From a virus, in the IMG/VR virus record IMGVR_UViG_3300045988_159412: a DNA stretch of 57,634 nt. One strand, given 5' to 3'. The notes under the pieces were generated by a model, which worked only from the letters and a program-made list of their open reading frames with translations, searched no databases and was not told where the DNA came from. The stretch's first letter is position 1. Every line of letters begins with the position of its first letter. Below, piece after piece: positions 6,144 through 34,148 of the stretch. A program made the position numbers and the translations under genes.

Positions 6144-8096
6144 ATGGTGACCAACGATACTAGAGACATAAGAATGGGTGTCAGTAGTGCGAACAAGGAG
6201 GGGTTGTTGCCTTCTCCTTCAAACCGTTATTTGCGCTCCACTTATGATGCGGCCAGATATGTTCCTATTGGAAATGAGTTCGACAAAGAGAGCCGAGTAA
6301 AGGAGCTTGGCGACCTTGGAGAAGGACTCACAATGTGGTCGAAGGCGCAAGCGGAAGTCGAGACAACGAACGACAGTATTCAGTCACGGCGCATGCAGGC
6401 AGAGTACATGGAAGCTTCCACACAGGTTTTCAATCAGCTTCAAAAAGACCCCAGCACGATGAACAATCCTGCGGTTTGGCTGGACGCCTATACGGAGGAG
6501 ATGACATCAAGGGCGGCAGAGATTAACAACAAGTATGCCAAATCGTTTTATGTTGGGCGCAATCAGATGTTGTCCAATGAAAGGCTCAACCTGTTGCTGA
6601 AAGAGGAGAAGAACAAGGTGGGCCTGATGGCGGCAGACAGAATATCAAAGATGGCCGCAGACGAAACTAATGCGGCGTTCAAGATTGCTGTGGCCAACAG
6701 GGATTTCGGGTTGGCTAGGGAGATAAATAAAAGCCCCTACCTAACACCTGCGGAAAAGATGTTGAATGAGAATGGAGTTGTTCAAGCCCAGACACAGGAC
6801 ATCATCCAGCAGGAAACATTGAGGAACCCTTGGGGTGTGCTGGAAGAGGTGAATAGGGATGGCGCTGTACAGCGTCGTGAATTGACCTACGAGCAACAGC
6901 AGTACGCATTGAACCAAGCGCAGGGCCGGATAAGCATGATTCAAAAGCAATCGTATGACTCTCTCGTACAGAAGTTTTTGTTCAACCCGGAAGAGTTTGA
7001 GATGGATGTCGCCAAAAAGCTATTGGACACCAACCAGCTGACGACCCAGCAATATGTCAACCTCCTCAACATGAAGAAGACCATGAGCGCCAAGATTGAG
7101 CCGACTCCAATGCAGTTTGCGGCCATGTCTAATTGGGCGGTCAAGCTTTCAGAGGATTATCACAAAGAGTCGCCAGAGGGACAGGCCAACATCCTCTCCC
7201 AAGCTGAACGGCTTCTTGAGCGGATGAATTTCAGCACCAGCGACAAGAACTCATTGCTCAAGCTTGTAACACAAAAGATTTCCCCGGAAACGTTCAATCA
7301 GGCTGACAAGTTGGTAGAGAAGTTTTGGGATAACGGCCAACTACCTCTGACCAAGACAGCGGATTACACCGGAACTCAAGGAGGAACTACTCCGATTTAT
7401 TTGACGGAGGGAGAGTTTAATACGCAGTTCAAAGAGAGGAAGAACCAGTTTTTCTTAGACAAAAGCAGGACATACCTAGACCCGAAAACGGCAAAAGACA
7501 GGTATGCTGTGATGGAGTATGTGCCGGACTCGAACAATCTGTTCCTGCAAGAAAAGATAAAAAGCGAAGTTCGTTCCGTCCTTTCTGATAAGATTGCTGA
7601 ATATAGGGCAGAACACAATGGGAAATCTCCTACCGGACAAGAGCTTTATGAGCTTGTTTTTTTCGCACAAGAAGAGGCGTTCTCCCGGAATAATATCAGC
7701 AGTATTGACCCATTATCTTCTGCCTCTGTTTATCCTTCTGGACAGCAAGACAGAGACGAAAGAAAGGCGACATTTATTCCGAACAACGTTAGAGTGTCGG
7801 CTATATCGAATAAAGCTTCTATAGATATTCCGACTAATGGTGCTTTTATTGTTTGGGCCGGAAGTAACTCTTTCATTACAAACGAGAAAGACTACTTGAG
7901 CATATATAAACGGGCCGGGGCGCCCCCTCAAGGATTTATCGTAGCAGATGAATCTTTCCTCCAAGCTCCACACAAAGATTTAATGGATGTGCAAGCTATG
8001 ATTTCGGCCAAAGCGATAGCGGCGAAAGCTGGATTAGATGCACAAGGAGAGCAGGGAATTTATTGTGCATTGCTTTCCTATTGGAATAATTTATAA
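6144..8096 (+). CDS. hypothetical virion protein, 650 aa
   Basis: Long ORF in the structural operon. Start is 3 nt after the previous stop. No motif recognised. Confidence 0.65.
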   Translation: MVTNDTRDIRMGVSSANKEGLLPSPSNRYLRSTYDAARYVPIGNEFDKESRVKELGDLGEGLTMWSKAQAEVETTNDSIQSRRMQAEYMEASTQVFNQLQKDPSTMNNPAVWLDAYTEEMTSRAAEINNKYAKSFYVGRNQMLSNERLNLLLKEEKNKVGLMAADRISKMAADETNAAFKIAVANRDFGLAREINKSPYLTPAEKMLNENGVVQAQTQDIIQQETLRNPWGVLEEVNRDGAVQRRELTYEQQQYALNQAQGRISMIQKQSYDSLVQKFLFNPEEFEMDVAKKLLDTNQLTTQQYVNLLNMKKTMSAKIEPTPMQFAAMSNWAVKLSEDYHKESPEGQANILSQAERLLERMNFSTSDKNSLLKLVTQKISPETFNQADKLVEKFWDNGQLPLTKTADYTGTQGGTTPIYLTEGEFNTQFKERKNQFFLDKSRTYLDPKTAKDRYAVMEYVPDSNNLFLQEKIKSEVRSVLSDKIAEYRAEHNGKSPTGQELYELVFFAQEEAFSRNNISSIDPLSSASVYPSGQQDRDERKATFIPNNVRVSAISNKASIDIPTNGAFIVWAGSNSFITNEKDYLSIYKRAGAPPQGFIVADESFLQAPHKDLMDVQAMISAKAIAAKAGLDAQGEQGIYCALLSYWNNL

Positions 8097-8103
8097 ACAA
8101 ATC

Positions 8104-11100: not shown

Positions 11101-14100
11101 GCGTTACTGAATTCTGTTCTCTCTATCGCTAATGCAATGGCTTCCGGTAGCCGGAAGTTTATCTCCAACCAGCTTGCCGAAAGGCTTGCGAATCCCAAGA
11201 GCAACGAAGCGTTTAATGCGGACATGAAGACTGCATTGGATGCCACAGTAGCGGCCTTGAACGAAAGAGCGGAGGCGGCGAGCCGGAAGCAGTTGGAGCG
11301 CATTATTCAGGACGAGATAAACAGGAGGGTTGAGCAAGCGGACGCTAAAGCCAAGAAGGATTTCAACAGGGAAATGAAATTCCTCCGGGGTTTAATCTCC
11401 AAGGAAATAAGGAAAGACATCAAGGAGGAAAGAGCGGAGGCGGCGGCAGAGAAGAAGCTTGCCAGTAAAAGCATACAGAGCTTGCGAAGGCTTGCCGAGA
11501 ATGCTTTTAAGGACACCAAGGGGCGCTCTCGTTCTTTGGACGCACAAGCCAGAGAGGAGACTATGGATGCCCTTGAGGTTATGGCTATGTCTCCTTCCGA
11601 AGTTGCAACCCAGCTTGAAGTCTTGGATAGCACCATAGATGAGCTTCAAAACCAGCCTGCCACAGAAGAACTTGCTCTGGAACTGGAAAATCTGGAAAAC
11701 CAAAAGAATCTCCTTGAGGTGTTTGGTAGTGCGTTGTATCGGGAGAAGATGCCTAACGGAAGGTATAAGTATGCTCTCAATGCACAGCAACTTGCGGAAG
11801 CAGTTAAGACATTGAAGGAGCTACAGCGTGAAGGGCGACTCCGCAGGAAAAAGGTTAATGAACGTATTGAGCGCTTCTATAATGATTTTAACGCTAAAAT
11901 CAATGAGCGAGTAGGAGGAGAGAAGAATCGTGATGCCCTTAGAAAAGCCGTAATGGAAAGGGACCAACGGGGAACGGGCTTTTTAGATAGAATCTTCACG
12001 CAATTCATGAGCCTTCAACAACTCCTCGAAGTGATGTCTTCCATGAAATCCTTTAAGGACATAGGGACATTCTTGCAGAACAACGTCCAATTCGCAGAGC
12101 AACAGCGAGGGGTAGAAAAAGAAAAGGCTACGTCCAATGCGATTCGCATCATGCGTGGAATGATGGAGATTGCAGGGCAGAACTCTCCAAGGTATTTTGA
12201 TGAGCTTTCTACAAAAACTATTCCCTTTATGGGGCATGAGCTAACCAAGTATGGCCTTGTAAAAGTCTATCAGACATTGAGAGAGAAGGATGGCTTGGCT
12301 GTATTGAGAGAAAACCTTGGAGACAAGGGGATGGATTTCGGCAACTATCGTAAGTACCAACAGGAGTTGGAGGGCTTAAACAAGAGCCTTGATGATGGCG
12401 CCATTACTTCCGAAGAGTTTGAGTCCAATCTGGAAGTCATTGAAGAAGAATACCTTGCGAGGAAGGAAAAAGATATTGCCAAGCTATTGGAATTGCTTGG
12501 GCCGGATGGGCTTTACCTTGCTGACGAGTTACAGAACCTGTATCGGGAAAAGGGCGAGAAGCTACGGGCGTTCATGGCAGAGAACTATGGCCAGACGGTT
12601 ATCCTTGATGACTACTATACGCCCCGCAATATTGCCGCCTATAATACAATGCAAGAAGGGGATATGGATGCTTACAGTAAGGGACACGTCACAAGGACGG
12701 GCTTGCCCTCTTACGCAAAGCACCGGAACACTCCCTCTTCGGCGGCGCTCTCTCTGGAAATAAACCCTCTTGGGGAATATCTTCGTTATAGCTCTATCAT
12801 GGAGGGGTGGATGACAGCTTCGGAACTGGTCAACTTCAACAACCGGGTATGGGCTAATCCCACAACGAATGCACAGTTGCAGAAATTATTAGGCCCAGCC
12901 AATTTCGAGGCGGCAAACAAAGCCCTGTATTACTTCATCAACGAGGGGCGTGTGTATGCCCAAAAGAGCATGTTGGCAGAGGTAATGGGGAAAGTGTTCC
13001 AAGTATTGGCTAAGACAAGGATTGCTTTCTCCTTGGCTTCTCTGGTGCGCTCTGGGGCGGCTTTGTTCAACCCTATCGTTGGTAGCAACTTCTCCATGAT
13101 GGAAATTATCAAAGGCGTGGCAGAGGTGACAAGCGGGAACTATAAAGGTTTTACCCTTGAAGAGCTTCGTGACTTGGAGGCAATGAAGGAACGTAAGTAC
13201 CGTGGATGGGAAGACCGTGTGCTTGCCGATAAGGCATTAAGCATTCCCCTAAAAAAACAAGCGCAATGGGGATATTGGCAGGAAGCGGGCATGAGCGGCC
13301 TTATGGCTTTTGACTGGTGGAGCATATCTTTTGTGAATCAGCTGACCTCCCACATGCTTGCTAATCGCGGTTTGTCGCATGAACAGATAAGATGGGAGCT
13401 TAACAAAAACATCTACCAGACGGCACAGCCTTTATCTACCTCCGCTAAGGCTATCCACTTGATAGGTGGAAGCTCATTTGAGCAAGCCCAGTTCCTTTTC
13501 TTGTCCGACGTGATGAACAAGTTCGGCCTAGTGATGATGCAAGGCAAAAAGGATGTTCCTTTCTGGGAGGCTTTTCAGGGAGCCTTTCGTGTTTATACTA
13601 TTGCCGCTCTTGCTAATGGTCTCTTCAACGGCTTGGCTACAGGTTTGTTTGGCGATAAAGACAAAGAGGACGACTTCATGAGCAACTTCTTATTGACTTC
13701 GGTATTGAGTCCGATTGTTTCTGTCCCTATGTTCGGCGGGTTTGCAGAGTGGTGCGCTTCCCTTATTAGCGGTGGTAAGCAATTCAGTCTGGGACGAGCC
13801 GATATGGCTGATTTATCCAAATCAATTCAAGGCTTAGTCAGAAGTATTGTGAAGACGTATGAGACTGTATCGGAAAAATGGGACAAGGAAGGTGCTTTGA
13901 CTACCAATGATTACATTGATATGGTTTCCTATGTAGGCAAAAATATTGGGAGTGTCGCATCGGCTACCACAATATTTGGTACTTCTGGGCAGAGTATGAC
14001 CAAAGCTCTAGAGATGGTAGGTGCATTATCAAATGCCCTTTCACAAGCTAAGACGACCACACAGAAATTCCTTCCAGAGTCAGTAAATCCCCTCTATACC

Positions 14101-14256
14101 GAAAAAGAAGCTATGAAGGAGAGGGCTAGGCAGATAAGAAGGGAGAAGAAGAAGGCCAAGCAGGAAAACGGCGAAAGGTCAGCAACCTACAGAAAACTTT
14201 CACGGGAATTAAGGCAAATAAACAAACAGTTGAAGATAAGGGGCTGGGAAGACTAG
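8104..14256 (+). CDS. tape-measure-like protein, ~2050 aa
   Basis: Gly/Ala-rich hydrophobic stretches in the N- and C-terminal thirds (e.g. VTGSTLLASGGGPVSMAATGMAVGSMVYG; LANGLFNGLATGLFG). Central charged coiled-coil (AEAASRKQLERIIQDEINRRVEQADAKAKKD...). This is the classic tape-measure architecture. First in-frame ATG (MEELSEQ) is at 8104; the track start at 8038 overlaps the upstream gene. Confidence 0.65.
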   Translation: MEELSEQPEDSILLDEIKKMNSGLASNKEQPEITEEDLEANPQAYSSEQIEGVLRNKRSIRTKLDDYLRMSSSLLPTTPREALDAVGTLREELQANGIDPEYERYREKIKRNEDIVYSVTRYINPTTGLFGDVPAQDVTNNKLEKILSAEQIRDFNNAPQFMRDKYVFNRIVENFFPEGEMDKGYALELLKKHYQTDSMHGVVSKYAQELQRNKDEETAYNEASTRFFDSFIETGGDYQKAIDSLEGNLNLYAENIFNQEPALKYIYQRAYNSVSWIKDEYIESGELDWDKMADRLLKLGEGETFSLAIQMLPYMLPKDDRTWLTQAIDDTASDVSRFARLMVDGGGDSAQAERLALAIQQEYRQGRDMPTSWLGIAAKVATDQVPKITAVTGSTLLASGGGPVSMAATGMAVGSMVYGSTVGLEAYRTNSSRAGALTYGVTVGALEGLLENVTLGVGALASKGIKVAEAGRKMASVAGRVPATVRGAAAGALSEYTQEVIADPIYVGLENVMRSAGFELTQQNTLKNWWETLDFTSPELLGATAILGGSIGAVGGYQANHLINRVGRSASALQAYGVPESEAVAIAEMPDGKERTNRLISALRNNRVSPDVQITNQQAGIFLNFLAKNAERFKDVELMPEISDNGDGTFNIVERDPVSGAEKVTTVTDEIAGTFMSQALQSNPGFIRALNIFAQEEIESGVGKETKIKSYTPDELRAKIQSTEDNNATIARLRALAVINQDPELLQSFRDGKVSIEDVANELEIVSAYRDGTIAVARGEANPLNILEEIIHARAISDLESGVISRSVIETQVRNYLEFLGRSAEEIGDLSNDVVLQEHLANMGKALATTPELFSAMPGNVQTILEWQKDAIAEVGNVFAEGALIKEAIEQGIVSPDFVKWSKSLATMAERRDGQDMAELVNGATGESILPMGQSLPSVRRRGTIDVTPSVRTINEAISNIVNGASERSIGQLHKLQRSMIKLSERFSQGKLTERGQQKALLNSVLSIANAMASGSRKFISNQLAERLANPKSNEAFNADMKTALDATVAALNERAEAASRKQLERIIQDEINRRVEQADAKAKKDFNREMKFLRGLISKEIRKDIKEERAEAAAEKKLASKSIQSLRRLAENAFKDTKGRSRSLDAQAREETMDALEVMAMSPSEVATQLEVLDSTIDELQNQPATEELALELENLENQKNLLEVFGSALYREKMPNGRYKYALNAQQLAEAVKTLKELQREGRLRRKKVNERIERFYNDFNAKINERVGGEKNRDALRKAVMERDQRGTGFLDRIFTQFMSLQQLLEVMSSMKSFKDIGTFLQNNVQFAEQQRGVEKEKATSNAIRIMRGMMEIAGQNSPRYFDELSTKTIPFMGHELTKYGLVKVYQTLREKDGLAVLRENLGDKGMDFGNYRKYQQELEGLNKSLDDGAITSEEFESNLEVIEEEYLARKEKDIAKLLELLGPDGLYLADELQNLYREKGEKLRAFMAENYGQTVILDDYYTPRNIAAYNTMQEGDMDAYSKGHVTRTGLPSYAKHRNTPSSAALSLEINPLGEYLRYSSIMEGWMTASELVNFNNRVWANPTTNAQLQKLLGPANFEAANKALYYFINEGRVYAQKSMLAEVMGKVFQVLAKTRIAFSLASLVRSGAALFNPIVGSNFSMMEIIKGVAEVTSGNYKGFTLEELRDLEAMKERKYRGWEDRVLADKALSIPLKKQAQWGYWQEAGMSGLMAFDWWSISFVNQLTSHMLANRGLSHEQIRWELNKNIYQTAQPLSTSAKAIHLIGGSSFEQAQFLFLSDVMNKFGLVMMQGKKDVPFWEAFQGAFRVYTIAALANGLFNGLATGLFGDKDKEDDFMSNFLLTSVLSPIVSVPMFGGFAEWCASLISGGKQFSLGRADMADLSKSIQGLVRSIVKTYETVSEKWDKEGALTTNDYIDMVSYVGKNIGSVASATTIFGTSGQSMTKALEMVGALSNALSQAKTTTQKFLPESVNPLYTEKEAMKERARQIRREKKKAKQENGERSATYRKLSRELRQINKQLKIRGWED

Positions 14257-23486: not shown

Positions 23487-24119
23487 ATGAATCACTATTC
23501 CCATGACTATCCCTTAGAAGAAATTGAACGTATTTCTGAACCGAAACTAGCAAAAGACATCCTGAATTTAGAAGAACTATTGAAGAGATTAGATGAAATA
23601 CCGCTAACAACAGAACAGGAAACGAAAGAATGGCGGCGAAAAGAAAAAGAAAAAGAACGCATAGCATCATGGAAAAAACGTTTAAAGCAATCCGGCGTGC
23701 CTCAAGGGTTTTATGATGCTTGCGTGAATGGAAAGATCGACAAGAGCCGAATACTTCCAATTCTGAAAAACTTAAATAGCGGGTGCTTATTTGTCTGCAC
23801 CCCGGAAAAAGGTAAAACCTTTTCCTCTTGCGCTTTGATATCGCGGGAATTATGGAAAGGCAGGTCGGCTTTTTACATGAAAGCTCCTGAACTGGAAAGA
23901 GAAATGGCAAGCTATAAAAAGGATACGCGCCTGATAAATAGAGCGCAATCAACCCCGCTCTTAGTGCTGGACGATTTTGAGGGAGTGCGAATGAGTGTGA
24001 ATTCATCCTCCGATTTTATCGCCTTGCTGAAAAAAAGAAATGATTCTAATTTTTTAACAATTTTGAATTCAAAAAAACGAACCTTTTTTCTCGAACAGAT
24101 CGAAGAGGCAGTAAGTTAG
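23487..24119 (+). CDS. DnaC/IstB-like AAA+ ATPase (helicase-loader-like), 210 aa
   Basis: Walker A-like CTPEKGKTFSS and Walker B LLVLDDFEG about 55 residues apart, as in DnaC and IstB. The antisense 178-aa ORF is rejected. Confidence 0.6.
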   Translation: MNHYSHDYPLEEIERISEPKLAKDILNLEELLKRLDEIPLTTEQETKEWRRKEKEKERIASWKKRLKQSGVPQGFYDACVNGKIDKSRILPILKNLNSGCLFVCTPEKGKTFSSCALISRELWKGRSAFYMKAPELEREMASYKKDTRLINRAQSTPLLVLDDFEGVRMSVNSSSDFIALLKKRNDSNFLTILNSKKRTFFLEQIEEAVS

Positions 24120-24149
24120 CGTCCCCTTAACTACCAGAAAACAAAAGTG

Positions 24150-24191
24150 TAATAAAAAACCCCTGTAGCCTAAATAAAGACTACAGGGGTT
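24150..24191 (-). terminator. rho-independent terminator of the AT-rich - strand operon
   Basis: Stem aacccctgtag/ctacaggggtt at 24158-24168 and 24181-24191. On the - strand it is followed by ttttttatta. Lies between convergent genes. Confidence 0.55.
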
Positions 24192-24216
24192 GAATTTGGT
24201 GTATTTTTATGACAAA

Positions 24217-24903
24217 CTATTGAACTCTTTTTTCGGGTATTAGTTTGCTATTAAATGAGTAGTATTTTTTTGAGTAATTGTAGGTCTTGGAATATTTAGA
24301 ATATCCGGTTTTGTTGTTCCAATAAACTTCATCCCCATAAAAAGAGCAGTAACTATATTCTTTCTTTTTATAAGAGGAATTTGAGAAATAAGCGAATTTG
24401 TTTTTGTCTGGTCTTTCAAAATTACCGTAAAACAACATCTTTCCGTTTTTCCAAAAAACAAATTTGCTTTGGCCAATGATAGAGTTAACCATATCATCAA
24501 TGCCCTCATTTGTTTCCTTGATACCTGTTTCGCCAAAGGCTGGCAAAAACAGGTATCGGAAGAAGGTTTCACTATCGGTTAAATCTCCTTTATTTTTTAT
24601 GGAAAGAACGCCGTTGTGGCAAAAATACCAGCCGCTACCGCTCCAACCGTGAACGTTTTTTTCAGAAATAGAGCCATGAGTTTTGATTCTAGCGTGAAGA
24701 AGGACTACGTAATCATTAGGAATTTTTTCCCATGTGGCCACAACTTCCTTTTTTAGAAGAGTTCTAATTAGAAATTCCGGGTTATCGTCTTTGCTTCCTC
24801 TCTTAAAACCTAGCAGGAAAAATCCGTCTGGATTATTTGTTAGGCAATTTTGAAAACGTTGAGTGCCGATATCTTTCTTGAATCCGTAAGCAATGATACA
24901 CAT
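24217..24903 (-). CDS. class-II glutamine amidotransferase (Ntn-hydrolase) domain protein, 228 aa
   Basis: Met-Cys start (MCIIAY) supplies the N-terminal nucleophile. NPDG, LLHARIKTHGSISEKNVHGW (compare H-x-R-x-A-T-x-G...N-x-HP) and FCHNGVLSIKN (compare HNGxIxN) match the GAT-II core. C-terminal Y/K/S-rich tail. Confidence 0.75.
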   Translation of the reverse strand: MCIIAYGFKKDIGTQRFQNCLTNNPDGFFLLGFKRGSKDDNPEFLIRTLLKKEVVATWEKIPNDYVVLLHARIKTHGSISEKNVHGWSGSGWYFCHNGVLSIKNKGDLTDSETFFRYLFLPAFGETGIKETNEGIDDMVNSIIGQSKFVFWKNGKMLFYGNFERPDKNKFAYFSNSSYKKKEYSYCSFYGDEVYWNNKTGYSKYSKTYNYSKKYYSFNSKLIPEKRVQ

Positions 24904-24916
24904 GTTTTTTGTTTTG

Positions 24917-25324
24917 TTATTGTTTTTTTTCTGCGTTTTTTGTGATGATATTTTTGATACCTTCCATTAGGGAAAAAGCTTTATTTTCTTCTTCCGGCGT
25001 CTCGTAAAAGATTTTTACGAAAGTATATTGCTGATATGTAGGGTATGTCATTTTAACTCCGTTTCTAAGCAAATAATTGATAGTTTCCAGCCTTATTTTT
25101 TGAAATAGATCTTGAGATAAAGGCCTATGGAAAACATTTGAGAATTCTAAGTTAAGGCTACCTATCAAGCTCGAAATATAGCATTCTAGGTTTGTTTGTC
25201 GTCGCAAAAAAGAGGATTGCTCTTTCTTCTGCTCTTTCTTCTGCTCTTTCATTTGCTCTTTCTTCTGCTCTTTCATTTGCTCTTTCTTCTGCTCTTTCAT
25301 TTGCTCTTTCTTCTGCTCTTTCAA
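24917..25324 (-). CDS. KEQK/KEQM tandem-repeat protein, 135 aa
   Basis: N-terminus is MKEQKKEQMKEQKKEQM..., encoded by a 12-bp by 9 tandem repeat. The remainder is non-repetitive. Confidence 0.55.
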   Translation of the reverse strand: MKEQKKEQMKEQKKEQMKEQKKEQMKEQKKEQKKEQSSFLRRQTNLECYISSLIGSLNLEFSNVFHRPLSQDLFQKIRLETINYLLRNGVKMTYPTYQQYTFVKIFYETPEEENKAFSLMEGIKNIITKNAEKKQ

Positions 25325-25326
25325 AA
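25219..25326. repeat. 12-bp tandem repeat (tgctctttcttc / tgctctttcatt), about 9 copies, coding
   Basis: Read directly from the sequence. Confidence 0.9.
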
Positions 25327-25405
25327 GCCTAATGCGAACATCAGGCTAAAGTATATCAATAGTCCAAAAATGATTATAATTGTTTCGATAATTGTTTTTT
25401 GTATT

Positions 25406-26725
25406 TTATTTTTTATATTCTTCATATTTTTTTATAAGTTTTTTTAGACGTTCGGTTTTAGCGTTCTCCATTAAGTAATTCTGCAAAAACAATCTAATAC
25501 TTAACAAATCGCTTTTATATAGATCTTGCGCTTCAATGGAATATTTGTAAATATGATAACAAAAATCTAAAATGGATTTTATCATAATCGTATCAACAGT
25601 CCCTTTGCCGCGTCGAAATTCTATTGTTTGACTATTGGTGAAATTTAATTCTAGGTATCTGGAGTCGCAATAAGGCTGAAATATTTTTTCCAGTCCTAAT
25701 TCTGATGCCGCGCTTGGATGTATTCCAAATTCCATTAGCTTTTGAATTTGCGGTTCAGCTCTACAATATCCTGTATTATTCCTTCCAAAAAGTTCTGTAA
25801 TAAATGCATAAGGGAAACAGTAAAAAGCCTTTTTCAGCATAATACAAACCTTTGTGCAGAAATTGACTTTTGATAAATGTATGTGGAATCCTGTATCTGA
25901 TGTTTTTTGCGAAAAACAAAAAAATTTAGGCATGAATTCTTTTGTTAATATATCAATACCTCCTTCATCTTTGATTAGATCATCAAAAGACATGGGAAGT
26001 GTTGTTATTTCTACGCCTCCTTCTTCGGGGGAAATACTACTATCTCTTTGCAAGTAGAAGAAATTTGAGGTATTATCAAAAATACATCTTTTTTTTGAAT
26101 AAACTTCTAGTTCTAAGCCTAGAAGCGGCTCTTTTAATTTTCTGTTGTCAGGCTTACACCATACATCAGGGAAATAGTGATAACTTCTTAGTCTGGTATC
26201 AACAAATAATTTTGGACAATTAGGGTGCTCATAAGTTGTTTTATTATCCCCTAGATGCGGAATTATGTATTCTGTTAGATATTCGACGTTGCTTTCATTT
26301 AGATTTCCCCATAAAACATTTTCAACAAAAAATCTTAGGATTTTCACATATTCCGGGGAATATTTTTTATATAAAATTTTATCAGGCGTTAGATTTATTC
26401 TATTTGTCAATCTTTTATTTAGTTTAATCATATCGGAATTTTTTATTAGTCTGATTTTGTTTTTGCCATAAACACGACCGCGGAAGTCTCTTTCTCCGAT
26501 ATATTTCAAAAATGCCGTAATTTTTCTTCTGGATTTTGACAAGAAAGACACATCAAGATTTTTGTATGTATTGTCAAGATATTCTTCTTTAAGAATTTCT
26601 TTGTAGTTTTTTCTCACAAAATTGAATAAGATCTCTAAAGCTTTTGTTTCTTTTGCGTTCATTTTTTTTAAAAAATAATACGGTTGTTGTTGTTTTTGTT
26701 GTTGATTTCTGAATAAGCTTCCCAC
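25406..26725 (-). CDS. hypothetical protein, 439 aa; possible glutamine-synthetase-like amidoligase (weak)
   Basis: Conserved-looking LGLELEVYS (E-x-E strand), GFHIHLSKV (H-x-H) and EFRRGKG (Arg) resemble the metal and ATP ligand pattern of GS/GCS2-type amidoligases. Shares an operon with a GAT-II domain protein, a described association. The low-complexity N-terminus suggests the true start may be MNAKETK. Confidence 0.45.
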   Translation of the reverse strand: MGSLFRNQQQKQQQPYYFLKKMNAKETKALEILFNFVRKNYKEILKEEYLDNTYKNLDVSFLSKSRRKITAFLKYIGERDFRGRVYGKNKIRLIKNSDMIKLNKRLTNRINLTPDKILYKKYSPEYVKILRFFVENVLWGNLNESNVEYLTEYIIPHLGDNKTTYEHPNCPKLFVDTRLRSYHYFPDVWCKPDNRKLKEPLLGLELEVYSKKRCIFDNTSNFFYLQRDSSISPEEGGVEITTLPMSFDDLIKDEGGIDILTKEFMPKFFCFSQKTSDTGFHIHLSKVNFCTKVCIMLKKAFYCFPYAFITELFGRNNTGYCRAEPQIQKLMEFGIHPSAASELGLEKIFQPYCDSRYLELNFTNSQTIEFRRGKGTVDTIMIKSILDFCYHIYKYSIEAQDLYKSDLLSIRLFLQNYLMENAKTERLKKLIKKYEEYKK

Positions 26726-27243
26726 AATTCTTCCACATGTTGCCTTGTGTCATGCAGTTTTAAGAAAAGCTCTTGTGATAAATTTACGAGTATTCCTTTT
26801 TTGTTAAGCTTTATTGCACAATGTTTATAATACTTTAGTGCTAATGCTTTATTTGATGTGAAGCAACGTGTGTGCGGATATATAGATTTTAGATTAGATT
26901 CTCCGTATTCCGGAAAATGACCTAAAACTTGCTTAGTCTTATATTCGTACCAGTTTACAGGCTTCACCCCGACAAATAAGAATCCTACATTGGCTCCGCC
27001 GCCAGTTTTACGCATGATAGGTAGATAACCGATTGTGTTTCCTTTTATTGTGTATGGTGTTATATATTTTTTTATAATTTCGCCTGTTCTAGTATTTTCT
27101 AGTTCTAGAAAATATTTAATACTGATTGATTTTTTTAAAAATTCAATCATCTTTTCGTTGTTTTCACTTTCTAACATTGTAGATACTAAAGGTGTTTTGT
27201 TTCTACAAGTTAGATACATTTTAATTATATACATTGTATTCAT
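26668..27243 (-). CDS. hypothetical protein, 191 aa
   Basis: AT-rich ORF in the axis-proximal operon. No motif. Confidence 0.5.
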   Translation of the reverse strand: MNTMYIIKMYLTCRNKTPLVSTMLESENNEKMIEFLKKSISIKYFLELENTRTGEIIKKYITPYTIKGNTIGYLPIMRKTGGGANVGFLFVGVKPVNWYEYKTKQVLGHFPEYGESNLKSIYPHTRCFTSNKALALKYYKHCAIKLNKKGILVNLSQELFLKLHDTRQHVEELWEAYSEINNKNNNNRIIF

Positions 27244-27677
27244 TTTTTTTGTTTTTCTTTTTCTTCTCCTGTTTCGAGAAAAATCTTTAAATCAAGCTCA
27301 ATGTTGTTTTTAAGTAAACTAAATTTTAGGTTTTCATCAACAAGGGTATAAGCTAATAAAAGAGCATCTTTTTTATTAAAAACTTCTTTCTTAAATTCTG
27401 GAATGGTGTAAATTGTGAGTTCGTTTTTTATTAGTTTTGCTAATGAGCCGTAAATTAGCAATCCTTTAAAACTCAATCCTTCAAACTCGTCACTGAGAGT
27501 AAAGCGATTCCCGTGCCTAACAAAAATCAAAGAATCTTGTTTTTTAGCTTTTAGTCGCAGTGCGGTTTCGATGAATCCGAAATTTCTTCTTTCCTTTTTA
27601 GGGACTAGGTATAAAAAGTTTCCCCCTTTTATTACCTTTGCGACCTTAGATAAAAGGTGATCAATATCTTTTTTCAT
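27240..27677 (-). CDS. hypothetical protein, 145 aa
   Basis: AT-rich ORF. Its stop overlaps the downstream start (ATGA). Confidence 0.5.
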   Translation of the reverse strand: MKKDIDHLLSKVAKVIKGGNFLYLVPKKERRNFGFIETALRLKAKKQDSLIFVRHGNRFTLSDEFEGLSFKGLLIYGSLAKLIKNELTIYTIPEFKKEVFNKKDALLLAYTLVDENLKFSLLKNNIELDLKIFLETGEEKEKQKK

Positions 27678-27960
27678 TTAATTCTAACGTTTTAAAGTTA
27701 AACCTATATTCTCGATTTTCCTTTAGCGGGCATTTCCGGAAATCGCTAATCAAATCGCCTTCCGGACGGCTCTCTATTCTGAAAATCAATCTCCTAGGGT
27801 GTTTGTTTGCGATAAAAACTTCTATGATTGAGCCTATTCTCCAATCATCTTTTATCGCCGAAAAAAAACACCTAAGACCGTGATTGAAATTTAGATAGGA
27901 GACAGGGAACATCCGCCTTTCTTCTTGTGGGTTTTCAAACTCAAATTGATAAACTTTCAT
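27661..27960 (-). CDS. hypothetical protein, 99 aa
   Basis: AT-rich ORF in the operon. Confidence 0.45.
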   Translation of the reverse strand: MKVYQFEFENPQEERRMFPVSYLNFNHGLRCFFSAIKDDWRIGSIIEVFIANKHPRRLIFRIESRPEGDLISDFRKCPLKENREYRFNFKTLELNEKRY

Positions 27961-27963
27961 TTC

Positions 27964-28293
27964 TTAAAATGATGAATAATTGATAAGCGCTTCTTGAGGT
28001 AAAATGACTTTGGATTGAAAGCATATTCCAATAATAGGCAACATTGTTTTTTCTTCTTTATCAACTCTAATAAGTTTTTTGTTCATGCGACAAATATATG
28101 AAAACTCTTCAAATCCAGCATCGATCAACATGCATTTAAGTATTTCTCTTTCAAAAAAGCCACACATTGGCTTTTTTAGCTCATAAATAATTTCATATTT
28201 CCTTGTTTCTCCTAGTTTTCTTTTTATATTTATTTTTGTTTTTTGCTTCAAAAAACAACTTAAACACCCATATGTATCTTTGATTATTTTCAT
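27964..28293 (-). CDS. hypothetical protein, 109 aa
   Basis: AT-rich ORF in the operon. Confidence 0.45.
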   Translation of the reverse strand: MKIIKDTYGCLSCFLKQKTKINIKRKLGETRKYEIIYELKKPMCGFFEREILKCMLIDAGFEEFSYICRMNKKLIRVDKEEKTMLPIIGICFQSKVILPQEALINYSSF

Positions 28294-28589
28294 TTTATGA
28301 ATATTAGTTTTTCAGTTTTTTTGTAACAAGGAAAACGTCTTATCATTTCTGCTAAAGAGTTTCTATATGAAAAAATAAAGCTTACTGGCTTTCTTTCTCT
28401 TTTTAATCTTTCAATATTAGAGTATTCCTTGAATACGAATATATTAAAAATTTCTTTTCTTATCATCTCTTTTTCAGTTTTTTTAAAAATTCCCACAAAA
28501 AAAGTTTTTTTGTTTTTCAGGGTAACAATGAGAAAAAAATCATTATTGTTGATAATATCGTAACACTCTACTAAATATTTGGTTTTCAT
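28290..28589 (-). CDS. hypothetical protein, 99 aa (probably the first real gene of the axis-proximal operon)
   Basis: ATG start MKTKYLVECYDIINN. Overlaps the downstream gene by ATGA. Confidence 0.45.
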   Translation of the reverse strand: MKTKYLVECYDIINNNDFFLIVTLKNKKTFFVGIFKKTEKEMIRKEIFNIFVFKEYSNIERLKRERKPVSFIFSYRNSLAEMIRRFPCYKKTEKLIFIK

Positions 28590-28758
28590 GTTTTTTTATT
28601 TTTAAGTGAGACTTAACGACATAACTAGCCGCACACAATGCCCTTCCCTGCAGGGCAATCCAACTCATGCCTCTATACGGAGGCAATTCTCCATATTTTT
28701 TCTTTTTGAATTTTGAGGGGGTGCAAAGTCTTTTCGCTATTTCGTAATTACTAATCAA
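28543..28758 (-). CDS. doubtful 71-aa ORF next to the palindrome axis
   Basis: The track's Met is a TTG codon. The first in-frame ATG would leave only 41 aa. Overlaps the 99-aa gene. Confidence 0.2.
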   Translation of the reverse strand: MISNYEIAKRLCTPSKFKKKKYGELPPYRGMSWIALQGRALCAASYVVKSHLKIKKHENQIFSRVLRYYQQ

Positions 28759-28876
28759 GGAGCACCCGCCTTCCGAATATTTACACCAGTCACACGCTCC
28801 GTTTAGTAACTCATTTGCAAATGAGTTACTAAACGGAGCGTGTGACTGGTGTAAATATTCGGAAGGCGGGTGCTCC

Positions 28877-29092
28877 TTGATTAGTAATTACGAAATAGCG
28901 AAAAGACTTTGCACCCCCTCAAAATTCAAAAAGAAAAAATATGGAGAATTGCCTCCGTATAGAGGCATGAGTTGGATTGCCCTGCAGGGAAGGGCATTGT
29001 GTGCGGCTAGTTATGTCGTTAAGTCTCACTTAAAAATAAAAAAACATGAAAACCAAATATTTAGTAGAGTGTTACGATATTATCAACAATAA
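28877..29092 (+). CDS. doubtful 71-aa ORF (mirror of 28543..28758)
   Basis: Exact reverse-complement copy. Same caveats. Confidence 0.2.
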   Translation: MISNYEIAKRLCTPSKFKKKKYGELPPYRGMSWIALQGRALCAASYVVKSHLKIKKHENQIFSRVLRYYQQ

Positions 29093-29345
29093 TGATTTTT
29101 TTCTCATTGTTACCCTGAAAAACAAAAAAACTTTTTTTGTGGGAATTTTTAAAAAAACTGAAAAAGAGATGATAAGAAAAGAAATTTTTAATATATTCGT
29201 ATTCAAGGAATACTCTAATATTGAAAGATTAAAAAGAGAAAGAAAGCCAGTAAGCTTTATTTTTTCATATAGAAACTCTTTAGCAGAAATGATAAGACGT
29301 TTTCCTTGTTACAAAAAAACTGAAAAACTAATATTCATAAAATGA
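29046..29345 (+). CDS. hypothetical protein, 99 aa (mirror of 28290..28589)
   Basis: Exact reverse-complement copy. Confidence 0.45.
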   Translation: MKTKYLVECYDIINNNDFFLIVTLKNKKTFFVGIFKKTEKEMIRKEIFNIFVFKEYSNIERLKRERKPVSFIFSYRNSLAEMIRRFPCYKKTEKLIFIK

Positions 29346-29671
29346 AAATAATCAAAGATACATATGGGTGTTTAAGTTGTTTTTTGAAGCAAAAAACAAA
29401 AATAAATATAAAAAGAAAACTAGGAGAAACAAGGAAATATGAAATTATTTATGAGCTAAAAAAGCCAATGTGTGGCTTTTTTGAAAGAGAAATACTTAAA
29501 TGCATGTTGATCGATGCTGGATTTGAAGAGTTTTCATATATTTGTCGCATGAACAAAAAACTTATTAGAGTTGATAAAGAAGAAAAAACAATGTTGCCTA
29601 TTATTGGAATATGCTTTCAATCCAAAGTCATTTTACCTCAAGAAGCGCTTATCAATTATTCATCATTTTAA
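29342..29671 (+). CDS. hypothetical protein, 109 aa (mirror of 27964..28293)
   Basis: Exact reverse-complement copy. Confidence 0.45.
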   Translation: MKIIKDTYGCLSCFLKQKTKINIKRKLGETRKYEIIYELKKPMCGFFEREILKCMLIDAGFEEFSYICRMNKKLIRVDKEEKTMLPIIGICFQSKVILPQEALINYSSF

Positions 29672-29674
29672 GAA

Positions 29675-29974
29675 ATGAAAGTTTATCAATTTGAGTTTGA
29701 AAACCCACAAGAAGAAAGGCGGATGTTCCCTGTCTCCTATCTAAATTTCAATCACGGTCTTAGGTGTTTTTTTTCGGCGATAAAAGATGATTGGAGAATA
29801 GGCTCAATCATAGAAGTTTTTATCGCAAACAAACACCCTAGGAGATTGATTTTCAGAATAGAGAGCCGTCCGGAAGGCGATTTGATTAGCGATTTCCGGA
29901 AATGCCCGCTAAAGGAAAATCGAGAATATAGGTTTAACTTTAAAACGTTAGAATTAAATGAAAAAAGATATTGA
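29675..29974 (+). CDS. hypothetical protein, 99 aa (mirror of 27661..27960)
   Basis: Exact reverse-complement copy. Confidence 0.45.
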   Translation: MKVYQFEFENPQEERRMFPVSYLNFNHGLRCFFSAIKDDWRIGSIIEVFIANKHPRRLIFRIESRPEGDLISDFRKCPLKENREYRFNFKTLELNEKRY

Positions 29975-30395
29975 TCACCTTTTATCTAAGGTCGCAAAGG
30001 TAATAAAAGGGGGAAACTTTTTATACCTAGTCCCTAAAAAGGAAAGAAGAAATTTCGGATTCATCGAAACCGCACTGCGACTAAAAGCTAAAAAACAAGA
30101 TTCTTTGATTTTTGTTAGGCACGGGAATCGCTTTACTCTCAGTGACGAGTTTGAAGGATTGAGTTTTAAAGGATTGCTAATTTACGGCTCATTAGCAAAA
30201 CTAATAAAAAACGAACTCACAATTTACACCATTCCAGAATTTAAGAAAGAAGTTTTTAATAAAAAAGATGCTCTTTTATTAGCTTATACCCTTGTTGATG
30301 AAAACCTAAAATTTAGTTTACTTAAAAACAACATTGAGCTTGATTTAAAGATTTTTCTCGAAACAGGAGAAGAAAAAGAAAAACAAAAAAAATGA
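29958..30395 (+). CDS. hypothetical protein, 145 aa (mirror of 27240..27677)
   Basis: Exact reverse-complement copy. Confidence 0.5.
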   Translation: MKKDIDHLLSKVAKVIKGGNFLYLVPKKERRNFGFIETALRLKAKKQDSLIFVRHGNRFTLSDEFEGLSFKGLLIYGSLAKLIKNELTIYTIPEFKKEVFNKKDALLLAYTLVDENLKFSLLKNNIELDLKIFLETGEEKEKQKK

Positions 30396-30967
30396 ATACA
30401 ATGTATATAATTAAAATGTATCTAACTTGTAGAAACAAAACACCTTTAGTATCTACAATGTTAGAAAGTGAAAACAACGAAAAGATGATTGAATTTTTAA
30501 AAAAATCAATCAGTATTAAATATTTTCTAGAACTAGAAAATACTAGAACAGGCGAAATTATAAAAAAATATATAACACCATACACAATAAAAGGAAACAC
30601 AATCGGTTATCTACCTATCATGCGTAAAACTGGCGGCGGAGCCAATGTAGGATTCTTATTTGTCGGGGTGAAGCCTGTAAACTGGTACGAATATAAGACT
30701 AAGCAAGTTTTAGGTCATTTTCCGGAATACGGAGAATCTAATCTAAAATCTATATATCCGCACACACGTTGCTTCACATCAAATAAAGCATTAGCACTAA
30801 AGTATTATAAACATTGTGCAATAAAGCTTAACAAAAAAGGAATACTCGTAAATTTATCACAAGAGCTTTTCTTAAAACTGCATGACACAAGGCAACATGT
30901 GGAAGAATTGTGGGAAGCTTATTCAGAAATCAACAACAAAAACAACAACAACCGTATTATTTTTTAA
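30392..30967 (+). CDS. hypothetical protein, 191 aa (mirror of 26668..27243)
   Basis: Exact reverse-complement copy. Confidence 0.5.
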   Translation: MNTMYIIKMYLTCRNKTPLVSTMLESENNEKMIEFLKKSISIKYFLELENTRTGEIIKKYITPYTIKGNTIGYLPIMRKTGGGANVGFLFVGVKPVNWYEYKTKQVLGHFPEYGESNLKSIYPHTRCFTSNKALALKYYKHCAIKLNKKGILVNLSQELFLKLHDTRQHVEELWEAYSEINNKNNNNRIIF

Positions 30968-32229
30968 AAAAAATGAACGCAAAAGAAACAAAAGCTTTAG
31001 AGATCTTATTCAATTTTGTGAGAAAAAACTACAAAGAAATTCTTAAAGAAGAATATCTTGACAATACATACAAAAATCTTGATGTGTCTTTCTTGTCAAA
31101 ATCCAGAAGAAAAATTACGGCATTTTTGAAATATATCGGAGAAAGAGACTTCCGCGGTCGTGTTTATGGCAAAAACAAAATCAGACTAATAAAAAATTCC
31201 GATATGATTAAACTAAATAAAAGATTGACAAATAGAATAAATCTAACGCCTGATAAAATTTTATATAAAAAATATTCCCCGGAATATGTGAAAATCCTAA
31301 GATTTTTTGTTGAAAATGTTTTATGGGGAAATCTAAATGAAAGCAACGTCGAATATCTAACAGAATACATAATTCCGCATCTAGGGGATAATAAAACAAC
31401 TTATGAGCACCCTAATTGTCCAAAATTATTTGTTGATACCAGACTAAGAAGTTATCACTATTTCCCTGATGTATGGTGTAAGCCTGACAACAGAAAATTA
31501 AAAGAGCCGCTTCTAGGCTTAGAACTAGAAGTTTATTCAAAAAAAAGATGTATTTTTGATAATACCTCAAATTTCTTCTACTTGCAAAGAGATAGTAGTA
31601 TTTCCCCCGAAGAAGGAGGCGTAGAAATAACAACACTTCCCATGTCTTTTGATGATCTAATCAAAGATGAAGGAGGTATTGATATATTAACAAAAGAATT
31701 CATGCCTAAATTTTTTTGTTTTTCGCAAAAAACATCAGATACAGGATTCCACATACATTTATCAAAAGTCAATTTCTGCACAAAGGTTTGTATTATGCTG
31801 AAAAAGGCTTTTTACTGTTTCCCTTATGCATTTATTACAGAACTTTTTGGAAGGAATAATACAGGATATTGTAGAGCTGAACCGCAAATTCAAAAGCTAA
31901 TGGAATTTGGAATACATCCAAGCGCGGCATCAGAATTAGGACTGGAAAAAATATTTCAGCCTTATTGCGACTCCAGATACCTAGAATTAAATTTCACCAA
32001 TAGTCAAACAATAGAATTTCGACGCGGCAAAGGGACTGTTGATACGATTATGATAAAATCCATTTTAGATTTTTGTTATCATATTTACAAATATTCCATT
32101 GAAGCGCAAGATCTATATAAAAGCGATTTGTTAAGTATTAGATTGTTTTTGCAGAATTACTTAATGGAGAACGCTAAAACCGAACGTCTAAAAAAACTTA
32201 TAAAAAAATATGAAGAATATAAAAAATAA
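30910..32229 (+). CDS. hypothetical protein, 439 aa; possible GS-like amidoligase (mirror of 25406..26725)
   Basis: Exact reverse-complement copy. Same weak motif evidence. Confidence 0.45.
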   Translation: MGSLFRNQQQKQQQPYYFLKKMNAKETKALEILFNFVRKNYKEILKEEYLDNTYKNLDVSFLSKSRRKITAFLKYIGERDFRGRVYGKNKIRLIKNSDMIKLNKRLTNRINLTPDKILYKKYSPEYVKILRFFVENVLWGNLNESNVEYLTEYIIPHLGDNKTTYEHPNCPKLFVDTRLRSYHYFPDVWCKPDNRKLKEPLLGLELEVYSKKRCIFDNTSNFFYLQRDSSISPEEGGVEITTLPMSFDDLIKDEGGIDILTKEFMPKFFCFSQKTSDTGFHIHLSKVNFCTKVCIMLKKAFYCFPYAFITELFGRNNTGYCRAEPQIQKLMEFGIHPSAASELGLEKIFQPYCDSRYLELNFTNSQTIEFRRGKGTVDTIMIKSILDFCYHIYKYSIEAQDLYKSDLLSIRLFLQNYLMENAKTERLKKLIKKYEEYKK

Positions 32230-32308
32230 AATACAAAAAACAATTATCGAAACAATTATAATCATTTTTGGACTATTGATATACTTTAGCCTGATGTTCG
32301 CATTAGGC

Positions 32309-32416
32309 TTTTGAAAGAGCAGAAGAAAGAGCAAATGAAAGAGCAGAAGAAAGAGCAAATGAAAGAGCAGAAGAAAGAGCAAATGAAAGAGCAGAAGAAA
32401 GAGCAGAAGAAAGAGC
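32309..32416. repeat. 12-bp by 9 coding tandem repeat (mirror of 25219..25326)
   Basis: gaaagagcagaa / gaaagagcaaat units read directly. Confidence 0.9.
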
Positions 32417-32718
32417 AATCCTCTTTTTTGCGACGACAAACAAACCTAGAATGCTATATTTCGAGCTTGATAGGTAGCCTTAACTTAGAATTCTCAAATG
32501 TTTTCCATAGGCCTTTATCTCAAGATCTATTTCAAAAAATAAGGCTGGAAACTATCAATTATTTGCTTAGAAACGGAGTTAAAATGACATACCCTACATA
32601 TCAGCAATATACTTTCGTAAAAATCTTTTACGAGACGCCGGAAGAAGAAAATAAAGCTTTTTCCCTAATGGAAGGTATCAAAAATATCATCACAAAAAAC
32701 GCAGAAAAAAAACAATAA
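32311..32718 (+). CDS. KEQK/KEQM tandem-repeat protein, 135 aa (mirror of 24917..25324)
   Basis: Exact reverse-complement copy. Confidence 0.55.
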   Translation: MKEQKKEQMKEQKKEQMKEQKKEQMKEQKKEQKKEQSSFLRRQTNLECYISSLIGSLNLEFSNVFHRPLSQDLFQKIRLETINYLLRNGVKMTYPTYQQYTFVKIFYETPEEENKAFSLMEGIKNIITKNAEKKQ

Positions 32719-32731
32719 CAAAACAAAAAAC

Positions 32732-33418
32732 ATGTGTATCATTGCTTACGGATTCAAGAAAGATATCGGCACTCAACGTTTTCAAAATTGCCTAACAAAT
32801 AATCCAGACGGATTTTTCCTGCTAGGTTTTAAGAGAGGAAGCAAAGACGATAACCCGGAATTTCTAATTAGAACTCTTCTAAAAAAGGAAGTTGTGGCCA
32901 CATGGGAAAAAATTCCTAATGATTACGTAGTCCTTCTTCACGCTAGAATCAAAACTCATGGCTCTATTTCTGAAAAAAACGTTCACGGTTGGAGCGGTAG
33001 CGGCTGGTATTTTTGCCACAACGGCGTTCTTTCCATAAAAAATAAAGGAGATTTAACCGATAGTGAAACCTTCTTCCGATACCTGTTTTTGCCAGCCTTT
33101 GGCGAAACAGGTATCAAGGAAACAAATGAGGGCATTGATGATATGGTTAACTCTATCATTGGCCAAAGCAAATTTGTTTTTTGGAAAAACGGAAAGATGT
33201 TGTTTTACGGTAATTTTGAAAGACCAGACAAAAACAAATTCGCTTATTTCTCAAATTCCTCTTATAAAAAGAAAGAATATAGTTACTGCTCTTTTTATGG
33301 GGATGAAGTTTATTGGAACAACAAAACCGGATATTCTAAATATTCCAAGACCTACAATTACTCAAAAAAATACTACTCATTTAATAGCAAACTAATACCC
33401 GAAAAAAGAGTTCAATAG
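32732..33418 (+). CDS. class-II glutamine amidotransferase (Ntn) domain protein, 228 aa (mirror of 24217..24903)
   Basis: Exact reverse-complement copy with the same MC..., NPDG, HARIKTHG...NVHGW and HNGVLSIKN motifs. Confidence 0.75.
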   Translation: MCIIAYGFKKDIGTQRFQNCLTNNPDGFFLLGFKRGSKDDNPEFLIRTLLKKEVVATWEKIPNDYVVLLHARIKTHGSISEKNVHGWSGSGWYFCHNGVLSIKNKGDLTDSETFFRYLFLPAFGETGIKETNEGIDDMVNSIIGQSKFVFWKNGKMLFYGNFERPDKNKFAYFSNSSYKKKEYSYCSFYGDEVYWNNKTGYSKYSKTYNYSKKYYSFNSKLIPEKRVQ

Positions 33419-33443
33419 TTTGTCATAAAAATACACCAAATTC

Positions 33444-33485
33444 AACCCCTGTAGTCTTTATTTAGGCTACAGGGGTTTTTTATTA
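33444..33485 (+). terminator. rho-independent terminator (mirror of 24150..24191)
   Basis: cccctgtag-loop-ctacagggg followed by ttttttatta on the + strand. Confidence 0.55.
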
Positions 33486-33515
33486 CACTTTTGTTTTCTG
33501 GTAGTTAAGGGGACG

Positions 33516-34148
33516 CTAACTTACTGCCTCTTCGATCTGTTCGAGAAAAAAGGTTCGTTTTTTTGAATTCAAAATTGTTAAAAAATTAGAATCATTTCTT
33601 TTTTTCAGCAAGGCGATAAAATCGGAGGATGAATTCACACTCATTCGCACTCCCTCAAAATCGTCCAGCACTAAGAGCGGGGTTGATTGCGCTCTATTTA
33701 TCAGGCGCGTATCCTTTTTATAGCTTGCCATTTCTCTTTCCAGTTCAGGAGCTTTCATGTAAAAAGCCGACCTGCCTTTCCATAATTCCCGCGATATCAA
33801 AGCGCAAGAGGAAAAGGTTTTACCTTTTTCCGGGGTGCAGACAAATAAGCACCCGCTATTTAAGTTTTTCAGAATTGGAAGTATTCGGCTCTTGTCGATC
33901 TTTCCATTCACGCAAGCATCATAAAACCCTTGAGGCACGCCGGATTGCTTTAAACGTTTTTTCCATGATGCTATGCGTTCTTTTTCTTTTTCTTTTCGCC
34001 GCCATTCTTTCGTTTCCTGTTCTGTTGTTAGCGGTATTTCATCTAATCTCTTCAATAGTTCTTCTAAATTCAGGATGTCTTTTGCTAGTTTCGGTTCAGA
34101 AATACGTTCAATTTCTTCTAAGGGATAGTCATGGGAATAGTGATTCAT
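33516..34148 (-). CDS. DnaC/IstB-like AAA+ ATPase, 210 aa (mirror of 23487..24119)
   Basis: Exact reverse-complement copy. Confidence 0.6.
   Translation of the reverse strand: MNHYSHDYPLEEIERISEPKLAKDILNLEELLKRLDEIPLTTEQETKEWRRKEKEKERIASWKKRLKQSGVPQGFYDACVNGKIDKSRILPILKNLNSGCLFVCTPEKGKTFSSCALISRELWKGRSAFYMKAPELEREMASYKKDTRLINRAQSTPLLVLDDFEGVRMSVNSSSDFIALLKKRNDSNFLTILNSKKRTFFLEQIEEAVS

Follow-up and report, generated by a model that had tools for sequence, protein, structure and literature searches.

A divergent amidoligase and Ntn amidohydrolase gene cassette in the early region of an uncultured podovirus-like phage

An amidoligase gene, followed in the same operon by the gene of an N-terminal nucleophile (Ntn) hydrolase of the class II glutamine amidotransferase (GAT-II) type, is located at positions 24217–26725 of the IMG/VR virus record IMGVR_UViG_3300045988_159412, a DNA stretch of 57,634 bp which was analysed at its full length (the window). 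According to the Pfam note on Amidoligase_2 (PF12224), such ligases are partnered by a GAT-II protein or by an AIG2/gamma-glutamyl cyclotransferase (GGCT) protein. The phage pair of Amidoligase_2 and class II GATase was reportedly predicted by Iyer, Abhiman, Burroughs and Aravind in 2009. Annotated examples of the pair come from LUZ24-like phages (UFV-P2, tf, PaP3), phiEco32 and the OM43 phages MEP401 and MEP402. Papers citing Iyer et al. (2009) report a suggested role in cell-wall modification or superinfection exclusion for phiEco32. In viral contigs, genes with amidoligase and amidotransferase Pfam domains were found to be co-associated with the 5-HMUDK/aGPT-Pplase clusters of thymidine hypermodification (Lee et al., 2021). 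In Clostridium prophages, the genes of an amidoligase (PHROG 2443) and of a gamma-glutamyl cyclotransferase are located two genes apart. The PDB profile search returned no solved structure of a family member, and the publications found on the pair contain annotation or prediction and no assay.

The window pair is a divergent member of this cassette, which has already been described from many phages. Both families, the gene order, the strand and the early-region location are the same as in phiEco32, LUZ24-like and OM43 phages, but the sequences are highly divergent: a tblastn search of 50,697 phage records with the ligase gave no match, and the identity of the hydrolase to proteins of isolate phages does not exceed 31%. 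The window hydrolase is of the minimal 228-amino-acid (aa) GATase_4 type, whereas LUZ24-like phages possess a 486-aa GATase_6 protein; their accompanying ATP-grasp and COOH-NH2_lig genes were not found in the window. Unlike the LUZ24-like, phiEco32 and OM43 pairs, the clade of the window has a repeat gene inserted between the two genes. The ligase profile also matches, at 4.7e-26, gp06 of MEP402, which is annotated as 'hypothetical' and immediately precedes gp07 ('putative glutamine amidotransferase').

Similarity to cellular systems is more distant. EgtA (GCS2 gamma-glutamylcysteine ligase) and EgtC (Ntn amidohydrolase) resemble the phage proteins at the level of fold only; no other ergothioneine genes are present in the phage, and the substrates are surely different. 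In the PafA/Dop system Dop is a glutamine synthetase (GS)-fold protein and not an Ntn protein, and no Pup-like tag is conserved beside the phage pairs. The glutaminase domains of GlmS and PurF share with the hydrolase the Ntn fold and the constellation of Cys1, Arg, Asn-Gly and Asp, but the phage protein is a stand-alone one of 228 aa and has no fused synthase domain.

The three open reading frames (ORFs) of the original prediction are present at this locus, on the minus strand; all the motifs quoted in it (MC, TNNPDGFF, HARIKTHG...NVHGW and HNGVLSIKN for the hydrolase, GLELEVYS, GFHIHLSKV and EFRRGKG for the ligase) are present in the translations. The pair comprises the following features:

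25406..26662, minus strand: amidoligase, 418 aa, ATG start at 26662 (the 439-aa version, 25406..26725, starts with GTG at 26725)
25409..26215, minus strand: catalytic glutamine synthetase-fold domain of the ligase, residues ~150–418, Amidoligase_2
26216..26662, minus strand: N-terminal part of the ligase (residues 1–149), helical and specific to the clade, low model confidence, unaligned in distant homologues
24217..24903, minus strand: Ntn amidohydrolase, class II GAT type, GATase_4/EgtC/YafJ-like, 228 aa
24898..24900, minus strand: Cys2 codon of the hydrolase, predicted N-terminal nucleophile after removal of the initiator Met

Ligase and hydrolase, in this order, form a tight and self-contained cassette of two genes. 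Hidden Markov models built from both alignments were scanned over the ORFs of loci that had been retrieved with the hydrolase alone. Both genes are present in 40 of 47 independent loci, and five of the seven exceptions are broken by a contig end. Among IMG/VR loci, the ligase accompanies the hydrolase in 34 of 40 cases, in 33 of these as its immediate upstream neighbour on that strand, and in five of the six exceptions the hydrolase lies within ~500 bp of the contig end; among loci from metagenome-assembled genomes (MAGs), the pair is found in six of seven. Gaps between ligase and hydrolase are mostly shorter than 50 bp, and the genes overlap at times. The pairing is kept across unrelated phage lineages, so that the gene-neighbourhood check of the original prediction speaks for conservation of the pair. 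Clustering of the neighbours revealed no third gene family common to the lineages, and no ligase-hydrolase fusion was found among the 389 retrieved proteins. Both genes are under purifying selection: in three diverged comparisons the ratio of nonsynonymous to synonymous substitution rates (dN/dS) is 0.17–0.19 for the ligase and 0.08–0.10 for the hydrolase, and a fourth comparison, with locus L016, is too close to judge (dS 0.04, ratio 0.29).

The cassette is met in several arrangements. One IMG/VR contig (L020, 6805–10658) carries two tandem pairs, 397 + 213 aa and then 418 + 236 aa, which represent a duplicated cassette. In L022, L023, L025, L027 and L033 (e.g., L022, 1989–9296), the pair is situated inside a head-morphogenesis module and not among early genes. 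In this lineage it follows the terminase and an SPP1-type portal, lies between the portal and the head genes, and is often near a gene with a PAPS-reductase domain.

The start of the ligase is likely ATG 26662 and not GTG 26725, since nearly all homologues have 418 aa; this ATG sits 5 nt past the stop of the upstream gene. The 439-aa ORF of the original prediction exists, and its length and start probably require correction. The ligase alignment included 50 sequences (the window protein and 49 homologues), and residue numbers follow the 418-aa version. Residues E184, E186, D207, S209, E218, P223, G258, H260, H262, T346, E348 and R350 are invariant in all of them; this set covers the ExE, HxH and EFR motifs and follows the family pattern of acidic, His and Arg residues on the barrel strands (ExE, E, HxH, ExR). 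Judged by motif and fold, the Glu, His and Arg residues are probably equivalent to the metal and ATP ligands of GS. The ligase taken alone matches Pfam Amidoligase_2 with E 0.003 (17.9 bits, below the cut-off of 22), and PF12224 is matched by 43 of the 50 aligned sequences, at best with 3.2e-13. Matches were also obtained to PHROG 16683 (unknown function, 1.8e-7) and PHROG 2443 ('amidoligase enzyme', 1.9e-5). Together with the invariant motifs these matches uphold the amidoligase assignment, which had been regarded as the weak link.

An exhaustive HMMER search yielded 280 ligase representatives at E ≤ 0.001, the distant ones being aligned only over residues ~155–415. The protein possesses the glutamine synthetase/GCS2 catalytic fold, and YbdK/GCL are among its nearest structures; 51 viral structures match it at E ≤ 0.001, and among the 50 listed most of the named ones bear the name amidoligase. 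The PDB sequence search with the ligase family profile gave no matches even at E 10, and for this reason there is no residue-level alignment of the ligase to GS or YbdK. No ligase match was obtained in NCBIfam, and a scan of species-representative bacterial genomes with the ligase revealed no relative. The ligase alignment is too divergent for pattern scanning.

The Ntn domain of the hydrolase occupies residues 1 to ~180, and its tail (residues 181–228) is rich in Tyr, Ser and Lys and has low model confidence. Met-Cys begins the protein in 115 of 120 homologues, with the domain starting at residue 1 throughout; in the window ORF no in-frame start codon is located upstream, and M1-C2 follows from the sole possible start. 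Cys2 as the mature N-terminus, on which the Ntn assignment depended, is therefore retained. An alignment of the window protein with 27 homologues (28 sequences in all) shows no variation at N24, G27, H70, R72, T75, H76, G77, N83, H85, H96, N97, G98, D110, S111 and E112, and C2 is almost invariant. The hydrolase alone matches Pfam GATase_4 (PF13230) with E 0.0021 (17.5 bits, below the cut-off of 23); GATase_4 is matched at E ≤ 0.001 by 18 of the 28 aligned sequences, and many of the 226 homologues carry the PF13230 label. As judged from sequence and reached via these homologues, the protein is a divergent member of GATase_4. It gave no match in NCBIfam.

Searched against the PDB, the hydrolase family profile finds 3mdn (1e-6) and the GlmS glutaminase domain (4e-4), as well as 1te5; no EgtC chain is among the 15 entries of this list. 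The protein has the four-layer Ntn fold, and EgtC is among its nearest structures. In the HMMER alignment R72 falls on GlmS R73, and N97-G98 on GlmS N98-G99. The GAT-II (Ntn) assignment of the original prediction thus agrees with the GATase_4 and 3mdn matches and the invariant residues of the glutamine pocket. As established for GlmS and PurF, the Arg of this pocket binds the alpha-carboxylate of glutamine and the Asp binds its alpha-amino group. Because of this Arg/Asp pocket, the predicted substrate is glutamine, or else a gamma-glutamyl amide whose alpha groups are free, and not an internal peptide bond.

In homologues, the tails following the Ntn domain are rich in Tyr and Trp (Y 11.4% versus 4.0% in the core; e.g., P0210, P0220, P0232 and P0205). 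The C-terminal residue is Phe in 36 of 120 homologues, 15 of 120 end in 'PF', and an aromatic last residue together with at least two acidic residues in the last ten is found in 34 of 120 (...DFLDDDKYPF). An acidic C-terminal tip is a feature of the single-stranded DNA-binding protein (SSB), and the acidic-aromatic tail of the homologues, which resembles it, may serve for docking to a partner. The window hydrolase lacks the SSB-like tip and ends with ...LIPEKRVQ.

The ligase and the hydrolase thus very probably belong to the enzyme classes named above. The labels 'hypothetical' given to homologues of both proteins in the sources are explained by the scores of single proteins, which are below the Pfam cut-offs.

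For the pair as a whole, a gamma-glutamyl ligation and cleavage mechanism is favoured, with a probability of about 0.45. The ligase would act as an ATP-dependent carboxylate-amine ligase of the glutamine synthetase/YbdK fold (Amidoligase_2), which could activate a carboxylate as acyl-phosphate and then join it to an amine, with Mg or Mn presumably held by E184, E186, E218, H260, H262, E348 and R350. The product would be a gamma-glutamyl-type amide on an amine, and the candidates for this amine include small molecules, precursors of the cell wall and lysines of proteins. The N-terminal Cys of the hydrolase would attack the gamma-amide of glutamine or of gamma-glutamyl-X in a pocket where R72 could serve the alpha-carboxylate, D110 the alpha-amino group and N97-G98 the oxyanion hole. 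This enzyme would cleave or process the same type of bond that the ligase forms, by analogy with EgtA/EgtC, PuuA/PuuD and PafA/Dop.

The gamma-glutamyl mechanism is favoured because both types of partner, GAT-II and GGCT, break gamma-glutamyl amides and because a cyclotransferase partner cannot supply ammonia; the complete glutamine pocket of the hydrolase, the presence of EgtC and YbdK/GCL among the nearest structures, the folds and families of the two proteins, their tight pairing and the purifying selection also argue for it. Several points weigh against it. A ligase and a hydrolase acting on one bond, with no other enzyme between them, look futile unless tagging and untagging or precursor processing takes place. 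Both window proteins are individually under the Pfam gathering cut-offs, and the ligase residues were mapped to the GS metal and ATP ligands by motif and fold and not by residue-level structural alignment. Finally, the strict self-sufficiency of the two genes suits a split amidotransferase equally well.

In such a split glutamine-dependent amidotransferase, which is the main alternative and somewhat less probable, the Ntn glutaminase would pass NH3 to the GS-fold ligase, and the latter would amidate an ATP-activated carboxylate (R-COOH to R-CONH2). A possible target is a carboxylate of the peptidoglycan stem peptide, by functional analogy with cell-wall amidation of the MurT/GatD or AsnB/LtsA type; this would be in line with the cell-wall alteration and superinfection exclusion suggested for phiEco32 in papers citing Iyer et al. 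(2009). Only the two genes are conserved and they are often translationally coupled, from which it follows that the pair should form a complete reaction; a split amidotransferase neatly explains why two genes are sufficient, and the hydrolase retains all GlmS residues which bind free glutamine. However, the Firmicutes prophage partner is a gamma-glutamyl cyclotransferase, unable to supply NH3, and this partner is left unexplained. Domain fusion is absent from the 389 retrieved proteins, and stand-alone GATase_4 proteins of known function (EgtC) are hydrolases. The scheme also has no precedent among GS-fold enzymes: these bind ammonia or amines directly, and to our knowledge none takes NH3 from a GATase partner.

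DNA or nucleotide hypermodification, in which the pair would add or trim an amino-acid-derived group on a modified base as protection against restriction, is improbable. It is in keeping with the association with 5-HMUDK/aGPT-Pplase clusters (Lee et al., 2021), with the position of the cassette just upstream of replication and recombination genes (DnaC-like loader, exonuclease and RuvC-like resolvase) and with the acidic tail ending in an aromatic residue, similar to the SSB tip, of many family members. However, another lineage has the pair between portal and head genes, and the window protein is without the SSB-like tip. Neither the window nor 21 kb of sequence from its relatives gave a Pfam or PHROG match indicating a dUMP hydroxymethylase, 5-HMUDK, aGPT-Pplase, TET/JBP or any further base-modifying gene, in a search where ~12 kb of the ~41-kb genome was covered by precomputed Pfam labels at best.

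The gene between ligase and hydrolase in the clade of the window has the following features:

24917..25324, minus strand: KEQK ORF, up to 135 aa, TTG start in the ORF list; clade-specific, outside the conserved cassette
25218..25323: tandem repeat that codes for the KEQK repeat (period 12/24 bp; the 24-bp unit is present 4.4 times)

The encoded protein consists of an N-terminal (M/K)KEQ repeat and a conserved C-terminal domain of ~95 aa, and the start of its ORF is uncertain because several in-frame ATGs lie within the repeat. Among close relatives (L001–L017), the 12/24-bp repeat, which codes for (M/K)KEQ/P, has between 1 and ~10 units and always stays in frame. The C-terminal residue is Gln in every relative examined. 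The gene is conserved within the clade, and in the more distant L018 its slot holds an unrelated ORF of ~96–101 aa; neighbour clustering detected nothing comparable in other lineages. The KEQK gene is therefore an insert and not a component of the module: the original prediction was right about its presence between the pair, but a part in a general module is not supported. In comparison with L016, the hydrolase is near-identical (dS 0.04), whereas the adjoining ligase is strongly diverged (dS 0.97), which points to a recombination breakpoint between them (24903–25406; L016, 3274–5631), in or near the repeat gene.

The KEQK protein was also considered as a general third component or a Pup-like tag and was rejected as such, being absent outside the clade and replaced by an unrelated ORF in L018; a search for a Pup-like tag (a small protein with C-terminal Gln or Glu) beside the ligase gave no pattern across 36 other loci. 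It is very improbable that in this clade alone it is the tag or acceptor of a phage-encoded, pupylation-like protein-tagging system, in which the Ntn hydrolase would turn its C-terminal Gln into Glu by deamidation and the carboxylate would then be linked to a lysine amine by the GS-fold ligase, or, alternatively, the ligase would gamma-glutamylate the lysines of the repeat.

That ligase and hydrolase are unrelated accessory neighbours or decaying remnants is hardly credible: single sequences do fall below the Pfam cut-offs and a third unrelated gene separates the pair in this clade, but this is contradicted by the co-occurrence and selection data, as the order and the shared strand of the pair are maintained in 40 of 47 independent loci, the catalytic residues are all invariant and dN/dS is 0.08–0.19 in the diverged comparisons.

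The window is phage DNA, and its phage origin, assumed in the original prediction, is confirmed by virion genes and by relatives on viral contigs. The proteins encoded include those of the tail tubular A/B type, an internal virion protein, a tail-fibre-like protein, a PD-(D/E)XK exonuclease and a RuvC-like resolvase; relatives of ~40.8 kb, many of which are IMG/VR viral contigs, additionally encode a portal of the T7 type and an Amidase_3 lysin. Two ORFs of the virion module, of 2072 aa (8038–14256, plus strand) and 650 aa (6144–8096, plus strand), have no Pfam match at E ≤ 0.001 and are, by position, presumably internal virion or ejection proteins. The source of the window is an uncultured gut or oral phage of a ~41-kb podovirus-like lineage.

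The cassette forms the 3' end of a leftward early operon of low G+C content. The early region around the centre of the window (23900–33700) has ~31% G+C, versus ~46% in structural genes. The same-strand gene run begins near 28800 and encodes, in order, proteins of 99, 109, 99, 145 and 191 aa, followed by the ligase, the KEQK protein and the hydrolase. For the five small proteins, Pfam (E limit 1) gave only stray sub-threshold matches and PHROG (E limit 0.01) no significant match; the 145-aa and 191-aa proteins, the two run against NCBIfam, had no match there. A terminator-like hairpin closes the operon and faces a convergent DnaC-like gene. The number of sites found in a scan for sigma-70-type promoters was no higher than in shuffled sequence, and a tRNA search found none.

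The 57,634-bp window is its own reverse complement with 0 mismatches, and its unique part amounts to 28,817 bp. Since the palindrome is perfect, the cassette locus is present twice, and the second copy of the three ORFs is at 30910..33418 on the plus strand. The terminator and the mirror features are:

24158..24191, minus strand: intrinsic-terminator-like hairpin, 14 pairs followed by a T run, 26 nt past the stop of the hydrolase gene
30973..33477, plus strand: mirror copy of the whole locus (palindromic assembly; exact duplicate)
30973..32229, plus strand: mirror ligase
32311..32718, plus strand: mirror KEQK ORF
32732..33418, plus strand: mirror hydrolase
33444..33477, plus strand: mirror terminator

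The centre lies between positions 28817 and 28818 on a short natural palindrome, with AACTCATTTG on the left side and CAAATGAGTT on the right. The ~41-kb relatives have an imperfect palindrome at the centre (L017, 4009–4028), beyond which they continue into different, unrelated sequence. The palindrome is most likely a fold-back artefact of assembly or library preparation, which is the simplest reading and leaves the genes unaffected. A real hairpin genome is an unlikely source, given the divergence of the relatives beyond the central palindrome.

Most genes of the window have no Shine-Dalgarno sequence and possess A-rich leaders (e.g., at starts 24903, 26662, 27243 and 28589), which is the typical pattern of Bacteroidota. 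The MAGs containing relatives of the hydrolase belong mostly to Bacteroidales or Akkermansia. A Veillonella host, to which the label 'Veillonella sp.' on one source's homologue would point, is doubtful in view of these leaders and of the MAG relatives found elsewhere.

Two proteins labelled 'hypothetical' by the sources thus gain a defensible annotation, and the view of ligase followed by hydrolase as a self-contained two-gene unit receives quantitative support across unrelated phages. Public metagenomes contain the lineage very frequently: one ligase sequence appears in the index of 197 assembly-collection blocks, and one hydrolase cluster comprises 1283 member sequences. A small and abundant phage with a minimal cassette, devoid of ATP-grasp and second ligase genes, would be a clean system for finding the substrate of the pair.

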